This document shows, one piece after another, positions 16,350-28,971 of a stretch of DNA of 44,568 nucleotides. The stretch lies in UHGV virus genome UHGV-0171754, one strand, 5' to 3'. Each line of letters opens with the position of its first letter. The stretch's first letter is position 1. The notes below the pieces were generated by a model. The model searched no databases. It saw nothing but the letters and a program-made list of their open reading frames with translations, and was not told the origin of the DNA. The translations under genes were made by a program, and so were the position numbers. The stretch comes from a virus.

Positions 16350-16471
16350 TACACGGCAACCAATGCGACCAGCTAAAAACACTCAAAATGGCAACCAATG
16401 CGCGCAAAATTTAATCTCTTAGCGATATGGGAATTCCCATACCGGCAACCAATGCGCGCAAAATTTAATCT
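16350..16471. repeat. Iteron-like direct repeats (28 bp x2 plus one partial copy) with a 16 bp perfect palindrome between them
   Basis: ggcaaccaatgcgcgcaaaatttaatct at 16390-16417 and 16444-16471, partial copy ggcaaccaatgcg at 16354-16366; palindrome tatgggaattcccata at 16426-16441; the last repeat overlaps the 3' end of the primase gene. Confidence 0.75.
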
Positions 16472-18735
16472 TTCAGGTCGTCATCGGTCGCCGAAAGCGT
16501 GATGGGTATATTCGTTTTGATGACGATATTCGACGACCCATAGATGGCCCCAGTGTGCGGATCTGTATAAAAACCGAGTACGCCGCGCTCGACCATATCG
16601 TCGATTGCCTTCGTCGATGTGCCACCTTTCGCGAGTCCGGCCTGGCGGACAATTGCCGATTTACTGAATCCAGTATGGTCCGGGTTATCTTCCATCAGTT
16701 TTTCCAGGGCCGCATAAAGCACTTTCTCTTTTTCGTTGCGCGGTCCGGCGGTGTTCTCTTCCTTAACCGCGGCCTTGCCTGCTGCCTTCGCCTGTTCTAT
16801 AGCGAACGGTGCCAGGGCAACCGGTACGAGGTAGAGAGTCTCGTCGCGAGGCGTGGAGGCAATCGGCTTGACGTCCCATCCGGCAACCACGTCGCCGAAG
16901 TCTGGCCCAGTGCTGGTGGACTGGTGCGCCTCGAACGCTTCTGACTTGCGGAGATCTACCTTCACCTTGCACTTGAGCAGGACGAAGCCGCGCGGCGCTT
17001 GCTTGATGCCGTTACGTGACTTCTCATGATACAGGTTCAATTGCCCGGGCTGGTTGTCGTCCGGCTGTTCCAGGAAGAACGCTGAATCGACAGCACCATG
17101 CAGCGCGCCGGACCCGCGTGGGGTTCTGCTGCCGTTTGCACCCTTCGCCGGGTGGTGGATGACGCCCGCACTGCCACCTGTATTTTCCGCAATGGCTTTC
17201 AGCGCTTTGACCACTTCACCCATATCGCTGGCGTTGTTCTCGTCAAACGGTTTAGCATCGGCGGACCGCAGCGCAACAGTCTGGTTGAGTGAGTCGAACG
17301 CCACCAGGCCAACAGGTTCACCGTTAGCGGTGCGATTGATGAAGCTGATAACTTCACGCAAGCCGGACTTGCTTGTGATATCCCAGCCGCGTGATTGCAG
17401 GTCGATAATGTGCAGCTTGTCCAGGTCGTGCTCGTATTTAATCTGCAATGCTTCTTTGCGCTGGTTGGAGGCTTCGCCACCTTCCGCGTCGAAATAGAAG
17501 CAATGAGACTGGACGACCTTCGCACCGCCAAACGGAATACCGGCGGCAACCGCGCCCATCTGCCCAAGCACATAGAAAGACTTACCGATATTCGACTCGC
17601 CAGCCATGTACCAGGTCGATTTAAAGTTAATCAACCCCTCGATGATCGGGTCGTGCTTACTGAACAGCGCAACCGGCTCGTTATCCAGATCCGCATCGGT
17701 GCACACGCCGTATTCTTCGCCGTCGCCAACCGCATCAACAATATGTTCATAGCACGACTCCACTTCCTCGTCGTCCAGCCCCGGAAGGATGGCGGCGATT
17801 TGCTTACGGGACATATTGTGTGGCTCGACGTTCAGGTGGTCCGGGATCCCGATAAGACGTAGCGCCAGGTGCTGGTGTCTGTTCAGTTCCGAGCAACACT
17901 CGTTTCCGGTGTGCATACACTTGAAACGGATCTCGCCATCCTTAACCATTATGGCGGTGGACCCTTCGCCGCTGTGCAGATGTTCGTTCGGGCACGGCAC
18001 CTCATAACCACGCCCGGACGACAGTGGTTCGAATCCTGCCTGGAAGCACCAGTCCAGAATGCCGTCCGCCACTTCGTCGTCTCCCTTGGTTAGTTCGCGG
18101 CGTACTTCCTCTTTATCCACCCCCAGCTTATCCGCCAGGCGAAGCAGACGACGGACGCGGGCACGTTTGCCGTAATGACACTTTATTACAGACTGCTGGT
18201 GTGGCAGGTACATCAGGCGGTTTGTGTCTTTCGTGCAATCGTCGAAGTCCACATCTGACAGACCCAGTTGGGCTAACAGGGCATACTGGGCGCGTCCCAG
18301 GTCTTCAGCCGGTACAGGCTTGTCCGTCAACACCAGGAAGCGAGCGCAACGTGTTCCACCTTTCAGTGGGTGACGGTCGCCGGTTGTGGTGTGAAATACG
18401 TGTTCAAGACCCGCGTCAATGAACGCCTTACGGCAGCGGCGTAGGGTGCGGGTGTCGGTGCGGTCAATATCGAAGAACAGGATCGAGCGGTCCACCGCAC
18501 TGGTCTTACGACGCAATCCGTCACTGGTATACGCCACGATGCCGTCGGCCTTACGCTTGCGGCGCGCATACTCGGCTTTATCTTCCGTCTTGTTGATATG
18601 CACCGAGGAGATTTCTTTCGCATCATTGATAAATTCGAAAAACTCTTCGGTAGTCATCTGGAAGTTTTCCGCCCTGGCTTTTTCGCCTTTTTTAGCGGGT
18701 CTTGTTACGGCGAATTTAATTAAACTCATGGTCAT
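16465..18735 (-). CDS. DNA primase/helicase (N-terminal primase-like domain, Cys cluster, C-terminal RecA-like P-loop ATPase)
   Basis: 756 aa; Walker A AGESNIGKS; Cys cluster CPNEHLHSGEGSTAIMVKDGEIRFKCMHTGNEC. Confidence 0.7.
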   Translation of the reverse strand: MTMSLIKFAVTRPAKKGEKARAENFQMTTEEFFEFINDAKEISSVHINKTEDKAEYARRKRKADGIVAYTSDGLRRKTSAVDRSILFFDIDRTDTRTLRRCRKAFIDAGLEHVFHTTTGDRHPLKGGTRCARFLVLTDKPVPAEDLGRAQYALLAQLGLSDVDFDDCTKDTNRLMYLPHQQSVIKCHYGKRARVRRLLRLADKLGVDKEEVRRELTKGDDEVADGILDWCFQAGFEPLSSGRGYEVPCPNEHLHSGEGSTAIMVKDGEIRFKCMHTGNECCSELNRHQHLALRLIGIPDHLNVEPHNMSRKQIAAILPGLDDEEVESCYEHIVDAVGDGEEYGVCTDADLDNEPVALFSKHDPIIEGLINFKSTWYMAGESNIGKSFYVLGQMGAVAAGIPFGGAKVVQSHCFYFDAEGGEASNQRKEALQIKYEHDLDKLHIIDLQSRGWDITSKSGLREVISFINRTANGEPVGLVAFDSLNQTVALRSADAKPFDENNASDMGEVVKALKAIAENTGGSAGVIHHPAKGANGSRTPRGSGALHGAVDSAFFLEQPDDNQPGQLNLYHEKSRNGIKQAPRGFVLLKCKVKVDLRKSEAFEAHQSTSTGPDFGDVVAGWDVKPIASTPRDETLYLVPVALAPFAIEQAKAAGKAAVKEENTAGPRNEKEKVLYAALEKLMEDNPDHTGFSKSAIVRQAGLAKGGTSTKAIDDMVERGVLGFYTDPHTGAIYGSSNIVIKTNIPITLSATDDDLKD

Positions 18736-18739
18736 AGCC

Positions 18740-19069
18740 TTATTTGGAAGTTTTATTATTGCGTACCCAGGAGCGCACTGTGCTCTGATTAATTCCGGTC
18801 AACTCGGCAATCATCGCCCAAGATTTGCCCTCGGCGCGCAAACGGATAACCTGTTTTTTGTATTCTTCCATTTCTTCATTGTGCTTCTGCAGCTTGCTCG
18901 CCGCCGTACCGTTGAGCAATTCCAGCCTGGCGCGCAATTCTTTTTCGGTAAGTCGCAGACGTTCGATTTCAAATAGCACCGCACCCACGGCATCGGTATA
19001 CGCCCATGACCGGCTTGTCTCACTGCAAACAGTCTTCGTTAACATTTCGATTGCGTCGTTTACATTCAT
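18740..19069 (-). CDS. Transcriptional regulator with C-terminal HTH
   Basis: 109 aa; GAGGG RBS; C-terminal GKSWAMIAELTGINQSTVRSWV is helix-turn-helix-like; coiled-coil centre. Confidence 0.55.
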   Translation of the reverse strand: MNVNDAIEMLTKTVCSETSRSWAYTDAVGAVLFEIERLRLTEKELRARLELLNGTAASKLQKHNEEMEEYKKQVIRLRAEGKSWAMIAELTGINQSTVRSWVRNNKTSK

Positions 19070-19083
19070 TGCTCTGCCCTCAG

Positions 19084-19129
19084 TTGGTTAATGACCAACG
19101 AAACTACACCTAAAACCGCAAGGTGTCAA
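19084..19129 (-). promoter_or_regulatory. Leftward early promoter (TTGACA-17-TAGTTT) with TTGGT-N5-ACCAA operator in the leader
   Basis: -35 = rc of 19124-19129, -10 = rc of 19101-19106, palindrome ttggttaatgaccaa at 19084-19098 between -10 and RBS. Confidence 0.45.
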
Positions 19130-19198
19130 ATCCTTTGGATATTGAAACGGGCACGCACGCGTGTAATAATAATTCCCGTCTCATTGTCTCTTATTGGT

Positions 19199-19234
19199 TA
19201 GCGCCGTCGCATTTTGCTTCGGCGCTTTTTTTTT
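19199..19234 (+). terminator. Strong intrinsic terminator with no upstream + strand gene
   Basis: Stem gcgccg/cggcgc, 13 nt loop, followed by T10; lies in the divergent early control region. Confidence 0.6.
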
Positions 19235-19245
19235 TAAATTAGTTG

Positions 19246-19275
19246 TTGACACCCATCCTGCAACCAATCTATTAT
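19246..19275 (+). promoter_or_regulatory. Rightward early promoter (TTGACA-18-TATTAT) with GCAACCAA octamer in the spacer
   Basis: -35 at 19246-19251, -10 at 19270-19275, octamer at 19260-19267; about 195 nt leader before first ATG. Confidence 0.5.
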
Positions 19276-19471
19276 TCACCCCGTCGACAGGATGCAGGAC
19301 GCAAACTGGAGAGGGGCAACGCAGGGGCCGGATCGAAGTGTCAGGATTCCCAACCGTGATTATATAACCTGGTCCACTACCCGAAAGGGAGAACGCGCAA
19401 CCAGGCAATATGTTAAGGCCACCGACGAAGTTAACTGCCGACACCTAAACTTAACCAATCGGAGATATACC

Positions 19472-20011
19472 ATGTTTGAGCAAATCGGAAACCTGATCAC
19501 TCGCGGCGTAGTAGCACTGGAAATCATCGCTAAGCATTATGAAACCGTTGGCGCTGCCGTAGACCCAAAAGCAAACGGCACCGCTAAGAAAGGCAAGGCC
19601 AAGCCGGAGACTGAAGTCGAAGACGACGATCAGGACGAAGTCGAAGATACGCCTAAAACGAAAAAAGGCGCGGCAAGAGAAACCAAGTCTAAAGGTAAGG
19701 CCAAAAAAGAAGTCGTAGAAGATGACGACGACGATGACGCCGATGACGTGAAACCAGCGAAGGGTAAAAAAGCACCGGCGAAAGGCAAAGGCAAGAAAGA
19801 TGCCGATCCGCTGGCAGAGATGCGCGACGAAATCAAACAGTATGCCGCGATTATCGCCGGTGGTGATGACGACGATGCTAACGACGAATTTGATGACCTG
19901 CTGGAAGCGTTCGAGATCAAATCGATCGCTAAACTGGAAGATGACGACGTAGAAGACTTCCACAAAGACCTGAAAGAAATCGTCGAAACCTATTTCGAAC
20001 TGGAAGACTAA
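19472..20011 (+). CDS. Highly charged low-complexity protein (acidic runs alternating with Lys-rich stretches), first gene of rightward early operon
   Basis: 179 aa from ATG (MFEQIGNLITRG) with GGAGA RBS; segments EVEDDDQDEVEDT, VVEDDDDDDADDV, KPAKGKKAPAKGKGKK, GGDDDDANDEFDD; terminator follows. Confidence 0.65.
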   Translation: MFEQIGNLITRGVVALEIIAKHYETVGAAVDPKANGTAKKGKAKPETEVEDDDQDEVEDTPKTKKGAARETKSKGKAKKEVVEDDDDDDADDVKPAKGKKAPAKGKGKKDADPLAEMRDEIKQYAAIIAGGDDDDANDEFDDLLEAFEIKSIAKLEDDDVEDFHKDLKEIVETYFELED

Positions 20012-20017
20012 TATTAT

Positions 20018-20047
20018 CCGGCCCGCTAATCTGCGGGCCTATTTTTA
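20018..20047 (+). terminator. Intrinsic terminator or attenuator
   Basis: Stem gcccgc/gcgggc with 6 nt loop, then ctattttt. Confidence 0.55.
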
Positions 20048-28279: not shown

Positions 28280-28971
28280 TTATCTGGTCATTATTTGACG
28301 GCAGCGGCTTGATGATTGAGCGTGCTGCCGAGATGGGTCATAAGTGTTTTTGCTTCAACTACTCCGAAGCCGACCACGGATCGTACCTGGACTACCGGAT
28401 TTATGGGCGCGGGATCCGCTATCGTAATGAGTTTATAGACCTGGACTTCGTGGACCGCGCGATGAATGGTGATTTCGGTACGCCGGATATCATATATGCG
28501 TTCCCTCCGTGTACGGATCTGGCAGTTAGCGGTGCGCCCGCTTTTCCGCGCAAGCGGGCTAAAGACCCTGCCTTTCAGCTTAAGGCGGTGCGCACCGCGA
28601 AGATTGCCGCTTACCTGGGTGATTTCTTTGAGGTGCCATATATGATTGAGAATCCGCGCAGCGTGCTATCCACTCAATGGCGTAAGCCGGACCACTCGTT
28701 TGACCCGTGGGAGTATGGTGGCTATTTGCCAGAGGATGACGTACACCCGTTATTCCCTGAATACATCAACGCCCGCGATTCATATCCGAAGCTGACCTGC
28801 TTATGGACCGGCAACGGCTTCCGTATGCCAGAGAAGAAACCTGTTTTCGTTGAAAAAGGGTACTCGAAGCAGTATAGTCGCCTCGGGGGCAAATCTGCCC
28901 GCACCAAATTAATCAGGTCGCTCACCCCGCGCGGCTTCGCGATAGCGGTCAATGAGGAAAATTTAAAATGA
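28276..28971 (+). CDS. Short DNA cytosine-C5 methyltransferase-like protein
   Basis: 231 aa; motif I-like SLFDGSG, motif IV-like FPPCTDLAVSG (Pro-Cys), motif VI-like ENPRSVL; no obvious target-recognition domain. Confidence 0.5.
   Translation: MIIWSLFDGSGLMIERAAEMGHKCFCFNYSEADHGSYLDYRIYGRGIRYRNEFIDLDFVDRAMNGDFGTPDIIYAFPPCTDLAVSGAPAFPRKRAKDPAFQLKAVRTAKIAAYLGDFFEVPYMIENPRSVLSTQWRKPDHSFDPWEYGGYLPEDDVHPLFPEYINARDSYPKLTCLWTGNGFRMPEKKPVFVEKGYSKQYSRLGGKSARTKLIRSLTPRGFAIAVNEENLK

Follow-up and report, generated by a model that had tools for sequence, protein, structure and literature searches.

A predicted small RNA gene in the divergent early control region of dhillonviruses

The virus genome UHGV-0171754, a stretch of 44,568 nucleotides (nt) that was analyzed in full and is called the window here, carries on its + strand, in the gap between its leftward and rightward genes, a compact unit made of a promoter-like site (Ps), some 57 nt of putative transcript and an intrinsic terminator (positions count from the first letter of the window). 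We propose that this unit encodes a functional base-pairing phage small RNA (sRNA) that is conserved across the genus Dhillonvirus, a reading to which the comparative evidence leads us to assign a probability of roughly 0.55; that a short RNA is made here at all we rate higher. By sequence match, the source genome is itself assigned to Dhillonvirus, that is, to a phage of Escherichia coli: the region 18700-19700 matches 175 GenBank phage records at 87-96% identity (counts of matching records range from 175 to 193), nearly all of them Escherichia/Shigella siphophages of this genus (JL1, SSL-2009a, Sodalis phage SO-1, EP23, BASEL isolates).

Results

Promoter, RNA body and terminator of the unit

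The unit is composed of the following elements, with variability counted among 20 intergenic variants.

19142-19147, + strand: Ps -35 hexamer TTGAAA; 1 of 6 columns variable
19148-19161, + strand: Ps spacer GCACGCACGCGTGT, GC-rich, with strict purine/pyrimidine alternation and an ACGCGT palindrome inside
19162-19170, + strand: Ps extended -10, TGtAATAAT; 0 of 9 columns variable
19171-19177, + strand: discriminator and inferred transcription start; 7 of 7 columns variable, including 1-nt indels
19178-19200, + strand: unpaired 5' part ("seed") GUCUCAUUGUCUCUUAUUGGUUA, unpaired in both the minimum free energy and the centroid fold
19200-19226, + strand: terminator hairpin AGCGCCG-tc-GCA-ttt-TGC-tt-CGGCGCT, with a 7-bp outer stem (6 G-C), a 2x2 internal loop, a 3-bp inner stem and a UUU loop
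19226-19235, + strand: T10 tract, the U tail of the terminator; its first T closes the stem

Ps agrees with the sigma-70 consensus at 10 of 12 positions, with AATAAT at 19165-19170 as the -10 hexamer, a 17-nt spacer and the TG of an extended -10 at 19162-19163. An earlier reading of this DNA, made from the sequence only, had paired TTGAAA at 19142-19147 with TAATAA at 19164-19169; both hexamers are present, and the latter, with its 16-nt spacer, is a poorer fit to the consensus than AATAAT. The promoter scan returned only three sites of at least 10/12 on the two strands of the 44.6-kb window, namely, Ps, the rightward early promoter PR 104 nt downstream of Ps and a site at 28850, and sites of at least 10/12 that also carry the TG are expected 0.28 times per genome in shuffles. 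Chance does not account for such a layout, in which a near-consensus promoter precedes a strong terminator by about 30 nt, the two sharing a strand and no gene separating them. Within the Ps spacer, all substitutions among relatives are transitions, which preserve the alternation and are the commonest type of change anyway, and one lineage has a 2-nt deletion. The alternating purine/pyrimidine run of about 15 nt (GCACGCACGCGTGTA, 19148-19164) could form Z-DNA.

The sequence-only reading had described a hairpin and T10 at 19199-19234 with no + strand gene upstream. Both are there, one position further on than given (19200-19226 and 19226-19235), and the terminator is indeed an orphan, all real genes between about 1.8 kb and 19069 lying on the - strand (head, terminase, lysis, small genes, primase-helicase and a helix-turn-helix [HTH] protein). 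The GC-rich hairpin is followed by T10 with zero gap, the sequence make-up of an intrinsic terminator; our terminator scan overlooked it because its loop limit of 3-8 nt disallows the internal loop. No T run follows the hairpin on the - strand, and the element is therefore predicted to terminate rightward transcription only. With the start placed at about 19177-19178 from the usual 7-nt distance to the -10, the predicted RNA extends from about 19177 to about 19233-19235, that is, over about 57 nt. Folding of 19170-19240 gave -16.2 kcal/mol (z = -3.4), a stability that none of 200 shuffles reached, and left the 5' 30 nt unpaired. The U-rich stretch UCUCUUAUUGGUUA precedes the hairpin and U8-14 comes after it, which amounts, as a sequence feature only, to an Hfq-binding module; according to what is reported of work from the Aiba laboratory, this module comprises a U-rich stretch, a terminator hairpin and a 3' poly-U tail.

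Conservation of the unit and its replacement in a divergent lineage

The region was collected from GenBank phages, IMG/VR and metagenome contigs, giving 20 distinct variants of the intergenic region and 24 of the unit; one of the scan patterns fixed the flanks only and left the RNA body free to vary. Only 1 of the 23 columns of 19178-19200 (GTCTCATTGTCTCTTATTGGTTA) is variable, versus 88 of 229 in the alignment overall (hypergeometric P = 1.2e-4), and the near-invariance of these 23 nt was also seen with the loci fetched by the body-free pattern. An invariant block after the start, combined with a variable start region, is the pattern that would be expected of an RNA gene with a functional single-stranded 5' part. 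As for the hairpin, 10 of 10 pairs are paired in every variant, with two double compensatory changes, one wobble change and no disruptive change. The compensatory lineage has ATCCCCG/CGGGGAT in place of AGCGCCG/CGGCGCT, an inner A-U pair is changed to G-U, and the other changes fall in the internal loop. The T run measures 8-14 nt among the variants.

Open reading frames (ORFs) overlapping the unit on the + strand (19091-19201, 19123-19242 and 19194-19367) and on the - strand (19181-19444, plus a 23-codon ORF) were considered and rejected. The unit is non-coding, since 1-nt indels (at 19136 and within 19171-19177) and the 8- to 14-nt T run shift every overlapping frame, on both strands, among close relatives. 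A dedicated, suitably spaced promoter and the lack of coding potential give the unit, as far as its sequence tells, the constitution of an independent sRNA gene. It does not have that of a cis-antisense RNA: no conserved - strand ORF or promoter was found across 19177-19235, nor any - strand promoter-like site to the right of it.

A covariance model built on the unit found one divergent homologue, in the IMG/VR phage L016 (44.2 kb). There, a promoter-like site (TTGCGC, 17 nt, TATTAT) is followed, at the same distance from the -10, by the 10-nt block CTCATTGTCT, which L016 keeps; the body differs, the hairpin is unrelated (CCCCAG...CTGGGG), and the T13 that follows directly abuts the PR of L016. 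This apparent retention of the architecture while the sequence was replaced is the strongest structural argument for the unit. Altogether, the conserved promoter, the invariant block after the start, the compensatory stem, the L016 architecture and the frameshifting indels provide comparative support for the earlier suggestion of a self-contained small-RNA unit of about 60 nt.

The L016 lineage was not found among GenBank phages. A search of IMG/VR with the 16-mer seed returned it only in dhillonvirus contexts, the other 16-mer matches being chance occurrences inside unrelated coding sequence, and the unit is confined to Dhillonvirus and the L016 lineage. In the equivalent divergent gap of a distant relative, Escherichia virus fEg-Eco19 (Kagunavirus; locus L056), a different orphan unit is found at about 1180-1440 on the - strand of the locus, with a sigma-70-like promoter (TTGAAA, 18 nt, TATAAT) and, about 240 nt on and upstream of the rightward promoter, a hairpin, GGGCAGGCC-ttaa-GGCCTGCCC, followed by TTT. 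It may be an analogous non-coding or small-protein unit.

Rfam searches, among them a permissive E-value mode with 116 nt, gave no family at the gathering threshold; the best match, which lay on the wrong strand, reached 21.7 bits where 72 are required, the others scored at most 18 bits, and these sub-threshold matches were driven by the terminator. Comparison of the unit with 5,426 E. coli genomes by blastn gave no match, seeds below about 20 nt being invisible to such a search. None of the eight GenBank/RefSeq records that we inspected annotates a non-coding RNA (ncRNA) at the unit, and two of them mark a "terminator." The literature searches, some of them too broad to be useful, turned up no paper on transcription, promoters or small RNAs of dhillonviruses. 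On these searches, the RNA appears to be new, lying outside the known Rfam families and unannotated as ncRNA in the records inspected.

If the match at Ps were fortuitous, the terminator could end long + strand antisense transcripts coming from far upstream, for instance, from the + strand cluster of the motif GCAACCAAT at 15.9-16.5 kb. Several + strand copies of GCAACCAAT do lie 3 kb upstream, among - strand genes, a small + strand gene is annotated there in one relative, and two GenBank records, as mentioned, annotate nothing more than a terminator at the unit. Such a function would leave unexplained that the elements of Ps and its TG are invariant while the sequence from the -10 to the seed varies. 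Furthermore, a 10/12 site with TG at the right distance from a terminator is expected about 1e-4 times by chance (an estimate from the 0.28 per genome), and L016 also has a promoter-like site at the same distance. We regard this explanation as very improbable.

Complementarity to the flanking translation initiation regions

The genes and sites that bear on the candidate targets of the RNA are the following.

16465-18735, - strand: primase-helicase
18740-19069, - strand: 109-amino-acid (aa) HTH protein, the first leftward gene, with its start ATG at 19069-19067
ATG at 19472, + strand: acidic 179-aa protein, the first rightward gene
19066-19099, - strand: candidate target 1, comprising the 5' untranslated region, the Shine-Dalgarno sequence (SD) and the start codon of the leftward HTH gene (UUAACCAACUGAGGGCAGAGCAAUG); duplex of -19.1 kcal/mol
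19451-19474, + strand: candidate target 2, the initiation region of the first rightward gene (UUAACCAAUCGGAGAUAUACCAUG), with GGAG at 19461-19464 and ATG at 19472; duplex of -17.2 kcal/mol

The reverse complement of the 5' part of the RNA, UAACCAAUAAGAGACAAUGAGAC, resembles a ribosome-binding region, and matching sequence is present at both flanking first genes. A repeat finder independently returned a 14-nt inverted repeat formed by 19187-19200 and 19452-19465. When the 23-nt seed was shuffled with its composition preserved, the leftward energy was reached in 0.6-0.9% of cases, the rightward energy in 0.1-0.3%, and both in 0 of 5000. In one close relative, the two flanking genes rank 3rd and 6th among 63 annotated translation initiation regions.

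The pairing is also seen beyond the window. Five different leftward leader sequences occur in the genus, and all give duplexes of -17 to -24 kcal/mol. In the dhillonviruses WF5505 and rolling, 16 contiguous bp of pairing run across the SD, and the RNA body is identical to the antisense of the leader at 15 of 16 positions, which suggests an origin of the RNA gene by copying of the leader that it targets. In L016, the body of the RNA has ACUCCUGAA opposite that phage's own rightward UUUAGGAGU. At the rightward site, within-lineage duplexes reach -17.2 (window with window) and -15.0 kcal/mol (L016 with L016), compared to -6.2 and -10.7 kcal/mol for the crossed pairs. We take the L016 rightward pairing as one instance in which RNA and target appear to have changed together.

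Other partners were considered. The best site genome-wide (18056-18100, - strand, -26.2 kcal/mol) lies inside the primase gene and resembles an internal start; it was rejected as a chance match because it is not conserved in relatives. For the 5' block as antisense to another phage site, the only hit was a single match with one mismatch, to AGACAATGAG inside the tape-measure gene, and there is no conserved partner. The extreme 5' block common to both lineages, CUCAUUGUCU, may act on a host mRNA.

A DNA motif that shares its core with the complementarity

The motif GCAACCAA(T) occurs 19 times in the window, against 1.8 copies expected. Its copies are mostly intergenic, often in tandem or palindromic pairs, and one lies in the PR spacer, abutting the PR -10.

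Sites 1-10 of GCAACCAA(T): 5871, 5885, 15420, 15953, 15984, 16075, 16356, 16391, 16445, 19260
Sites 11-19 of GCAACCAA(T): 22116, 22132, 26351, 29293, 29310, 31223, 31235, 34340, 39805

The motif is probably either a binding site of a phage transcription factor or a phage-specific middle/late promoter element, and the 109-aa HTH protein, which has a sigma-70 region 4-like domain, is the obvious candidate for the factor. The core AACCAA is common to GCAACCAA and to the complementary segments, and part of the complementarity could therefore reflect protein-binding sites, a point that weighs against a base-pairing RNA. Against a pure DNA-site explanation, the copies in the RNA gene and in both start regions read YTAACCAA rather than GCAACCAA and differ from the 9-mer GCAACCAAT at 2 or more positions. 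We also considered TTGGTTA as multiple operators of a dimeric repressor and rejected it: only the site near the leftward promoter PL (19083-19099) is palindromic, and the TTGGTTA copies in the RNA gene, in the PR spacer and in the rightward initiation region have no partner half-site.

The PL site is a perfect palindrome, GTTGGT-TAATG-ACCAAC (GTTGGTTAATGACCAAC), located between the inferred PL -10 and the SD of the HTH gene. It is operator-like, possibly serving autoregulation, and is replaced in the phage CHD5UKE2, whose first leftward gene differs. The HTH gene itself is labeled variously in public records, as transposase, resolvase or "DNA recombination nuclease inhibitor gamma," and its product matches Pfam only with a C-terminal HTH_23/HTH_28/sigma-70 region 4 domain.

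Neighboring promoters and readings at the level of transcription

To the right of the unit, from 19472 to about 32.4 kb, the genes lie on the + strand (the acidic 179-aa protein, exonuclease, SSB, DNA polymerase, helicase and methylases). The gap between the leftward and rightward blocks measures 403 nt (19070-19471), and with opposed gene blocks on either side it is therefore the single divergent control region of the genome. Besides Ps, it contains two promoters.

19101-19129, - strand: PL, inferred leftward promoter, with -35 TTGACA at 19129-19124, a 17-nt spacer and -10 TAGTTT at 19106-19101
19236-19275, + strand: PR, rightward early promoter, with -35 TTGACA at 19246-19251, an 18-nt spacer and -10 TATTAT at 19270-19275; 11 of 12 consensus positions

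The hexamers of PL are conserved among dhillonvirus variants; we infer this promoter, rather than assign it, because its -10 is weak (3/6). PL and Ps stand back to back, with 12 bp between their -35 hexamers. PR would start near 19282, has the UP-proximal-like stretch AAATTAGTTG upstream and carries the GCAACCAAT motif in its spacer, at 19260-19268. Its UP and -35 part is variable at 1 of 16 alignment columns.

The terminator had been suggested to insulate the two divergent promoters. The layout does not fit this proposal: the terminator lies between the tandem rightward promoters Ps and PR, and PL fires away from it. It can stop only + strand transcription from Ps, and insulation alone therefore does not explain why Ps exists.

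The terminator may instead have a second function on its right-hand side. The published consensus of UP elements consists of A/T tracts in a distal and a proximal subsite. T10 is located at about -56 to -47 of PR and AAATTAGTT at -46 to -38, the positions of these two subsites, so that the T tract probably both ends the small RNA and recruits polymerase to PR as part of an UP element. This role does not replace the RNA, since an UP element requires no covarying hairpin and no conserved block in a transcript.

It could nevertheless be asked whether the DNA level accounts for everything. In that case, the T tract and AAATTAG would be the UP element of PR, the hairpin would shield PR from polymerases coming from Ps, Ps would modulate PL by polymerase competition or supercoiling coupling, and the RNA would be a functionless by-product. 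T10 and AAATTAGTTG, at about -56 to -37 of PR, are indeed at the published location of UP elements, the UP stretch and PR -35 are nearly invariant (the 1 of 16 columns given above), and polymerase footprints would overlap on the divergent PL and Ps, given the 12 bp between their -35 hexamers. In addition, a 2026 preprint reports widespread promoter-terminator coupling in bacteria. However, an UP element has no need of the hairpin, and this explanation does not say why conservation in the region peaks in the 23 nt transcribed ahead of the hairpin, next to a start region that is free to change. The survival of CTCATTGTCT in L016 despite replacement of hairpin and body, the compensatory changes in the stem and the cognate-specific complementarity to the rightward initiation region are likewise left unexplained. 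We consider it unlikely that the unit acts at the level of DNA and transcription only.

The position of the unit directly upstream of the rightward operon also brings to mind an attenuator or an entry point for antitermination, like lambda pR'-tR'. The short RNA would then be its default product, and loading of a phage factor, either at Ps or where polymerase pauses close to the promoter, would allow read-through of this and later terminators into the operon. A promoter followed within 60 nt by a strong terminator is the arrangement that such a device would need, cATtgT in the conserved +2 to +11 block resembles the -10-like hexamers that induce sigma-dependent pausing, and the conserved GC-rich palindrome in the spacer could bind a protein. 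There is, moreover, a second terminator at 20020-20046, after the first rightward gene. However, PR, a stronger promoter (11/12), already serves the operon from directly after the terminator, and the late genes are downstream of PL, on the opposite strand, not downstream of Ps. No Q-like or antiterminator family was found in 14 neighboring or unknown proteins scanned, nor in RefSeq annotation, and read-through control does not predict complementarity to initiation regions. An antitermination device at Ps is thus improbable in our view.

The second terminator deserves mention in its own right.

20020-20046, + strand: strong intrinsic terminator GGCCCGC-taatct-GCGGGCC followed by TATTTTT, separating the first rightward gene, which it directly follows, from the remainder of the replication operon

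WF5505 carries an annotation for it as well, and its location implies attenuation or antitermination in the rightward operon.

Finally, the unit could mark a replication origin, where a short transcript, or transcription into the AT-rich T tract, would open the DNA or prime the leading strand, as do the T7 primary-origin promoters or as was once proposed for lambda oop. In favor of this are its location at the switch of gene orientation, beside the primase-helicase operon, its coincidence with the lowest point of the cumulative GC skew (about 18-20 kb), and the phage's own DNA polymerase, primase-helicase and SSB. GC skew tracks the direction of transcription here, hence it is not diagnostic, and a search of the intergenic region for repeats gave neither iterons nor DnaA-box-like ones. 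A primer role would also leave the conserved seed and the complementarity to initiation regions unexplained, and according to a review, oop was first proposed as a primer and the idea was later rejected. We give little credence to an origin function.

A structured leader RNA downstream of PR

Separate from the unit, a second RNA element was noted in the leader between PR and ATG 19472.

19292-19435, + strand: about 140 nt of structured RNA showing clear covariation

One of its stems reads CCTGG/CCAGG, CCAGG/CCTGG or CCCGG/CCGGG in dhillonviruses and CATGA/TCATG, CGCAC/GTGCG, CTATC/GATAG or ATTGG/CCAAT in other phages, and RNAalifold reported seven covarying pairs. The element is found at 78-92% core identity in the unrelated siphophages Warwickvirus tunus, Changchunvirus PHB17, Sortsnevirus, HeidiAbel_Bas97, Enterobacter phage Arya and Klebsiella KA2-1, and it is absent from the short-leader dhillonviruses WF5505, rolling, Envy and YD-2008.s. 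It is always intergenic, with no terminator after it, and for 10 of 14 occurrences the end of a sigma-70-like -10 falls 30-34 nt ahead of its conserved GGAGAGG core. There was no Rfam match even at E = 10. The element appears to be phage-only: the lone "bacterial" match is a 42.8-kb contig with a sortkaff-type version, probably a mis-binned phage. We see in it a candidate promoter-proximal leader RNA, such as a put-like antiterminator, whose novelty may well exceed that of the small RNA.

Some genomes (JL1 gp18, for example) annotate the first rightward gene from an upstream ATG at 19292, so that it runs across the structured leader. ATG 19472 (MFEQI...) is the start that is conserved and has an SD, and the short-leader phages offer no other.

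Near the beginning of the window, at about 26-145 on the - strand, at least 6 CGGGACA repeats are clustered (GCGGGACAG, GGCGGGACAAG and others). This cluster, which surfaced only as G-U-rich false matches in the duplex scan, may be a terminase-recognition (cos or pac) region.

Discussion

We favor a base-pairing RNA that would work as follows. Host sigma-70 RNA polymerase would start at Ps (about 19177) and stop at the intrinsic terminator (about 19233-19235), yielding a stable RNA of about 57 nt. Its 5' part, some 23 nt rich in U and C, would be unpaired and would be followed by the terminator hairpin and a long U tail, the standard build of enterobacterial Hfq-type sRNAs. This RNA, presumably bound by Hfq, would pair through its unpaired part, in antisense, with the ribosome-binding regions of its candidate targets, the first genes on both sides (HTH on the left, acidic 179-aa protein on the right), and early-gene translation would be damped as the RNA accumulates.

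Several observations weigh against this reading, in addition to the core shared with the DNA motif. The complementarity to the targets was noticed before it was tested, which makes its statistics post hoc, and C/U-rich seeds pair with any SD. The duplex energies are not outliers genome-wide, the background being -10.4 +/- 3.6 kcal/mol, and in the close relative whose 63 initiation regions were ranked, a different gene comes first. CHD5UKE2, with its different leftward gene, shows no pairing there (-12.7 kcal/mol), and its RNA is unchanged; similarly, the leftward site of L016 has no preference for the RNA of its own lineage. All stem covariation within the genus comes from one lineage. The orphan terminator was not found in the Guernseyvirinae-like next relatives, which have homologous primase and rightward genes and shorter gaps. 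In the literature, we found no dhillonvirus transcriptome that resolves small RNAs; PRJEB75248 is a standard RNA-seq data set of EHEC Sakai infected with the dhillonvirus bov25_1D, from a type of library in which RNAs below 100 nt are under-represented.

A more far-reaching version can be formulated, which we put forward as tentative and rather doubtful as a whole. A dedicated "anti-RBS" RNA, placed between both early operons and directed against their ribosome-binding sites (RBS), would constitute a built-in timer that shuts early translation as it accumulates, by pairing with the SDs of both first genes. Its body would be a near-copy of the leftward-leader antisense in several lineages and would have coevolved with the rightward leader in the divergent lineage, the same DNA would serve as UP element of the early promoter, and CUCAUUGUCU may hit a host mRNA.

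In its build, the predicted dhillonvirus RNA resembles Hfq-type sRNAs such as RybB, OmrA/B and the lambda-encoded PreS: it has its own sigma-70 promoter, falls within about 50-90 nt, has a conserved unpaired 5' seed, a U-rich stretch and a Rho-independent terminator with a long U tail, and is predicted to pair with ribosome-binding regions. It has no sequence or Rfam relationship to them, the matches being far below gathering scores. PreS is an Hfq-dependent sRNA that targets the host dnaN. In contrast, the dhillonvirus RNA belongs to a virulent siphophage, its best candidate targets are the phage's own flanking genes, and Hfq binding is a prediction.

Phage antisense RNAs offer a second comparison. 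P1/P7 c4 and P22 Sar, according to a review, block the ribosome-binding site of a regulator gene; the dhillonvirus RNA is likewise short, complementary to the initiation region of a nearby regulatory gene and expected to lower its translation. Unlike Sar, a true cis-antisense RNA that overlaps its target, it has no overlap with the leftward transcript, since PL initiates about 80 nt to its left and is directed away from it. Unlike c4, which is processed from a longer transcript, the unit has its own promoter and terminator, and whereas c4 and Sar serve the control of lysogeny, dhillonviruses are virulent. Lambda OOP shares with the unit the short length (77 nt for OOP), an own promoter (constitutive in OOP), a strong intrinsic terminator, the location in the control/replication region of a siphophage and the action on a phage regulator gene. 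However, OOP overlaps the 3' end of cII, to which it is antisense, and acts via RNase III, while here a partial complementarity would act in trans at ribosome-binding sites. The lambda pR'-tR' 6S transcript also comes from a promoter closely followed by a terminator upstream of an operon, giving a short default transcript. In contrast to lambda, a stronger second promoter follows the terminator here, the late genes (structural/lysis) are on the other strand, and the 14 proteins scanned included no Q-like protein.

Functional small RNAs are well documented in temperate phages and prophages, whereas virulent coliphages have yielded few. Sewage and gut samples commonly contain dhillonviruses, which form part of the BASEL collection and are used in therapy and biocontrol studies; to our knowledge, their early regulation has not been studied previously. 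If the T tract has the double role proposed above, the overlap of terminator and UP element would be a compact example of one sequence serving two adjacent transcription units. The sRNA, if real, would add an unannotated gene to about 190 GenBank genomes, and, as a conserved RNA of about 57 nt at the center of the early control region, it would provide a cheap and directly testable entry to the timing of early genes in these phages.

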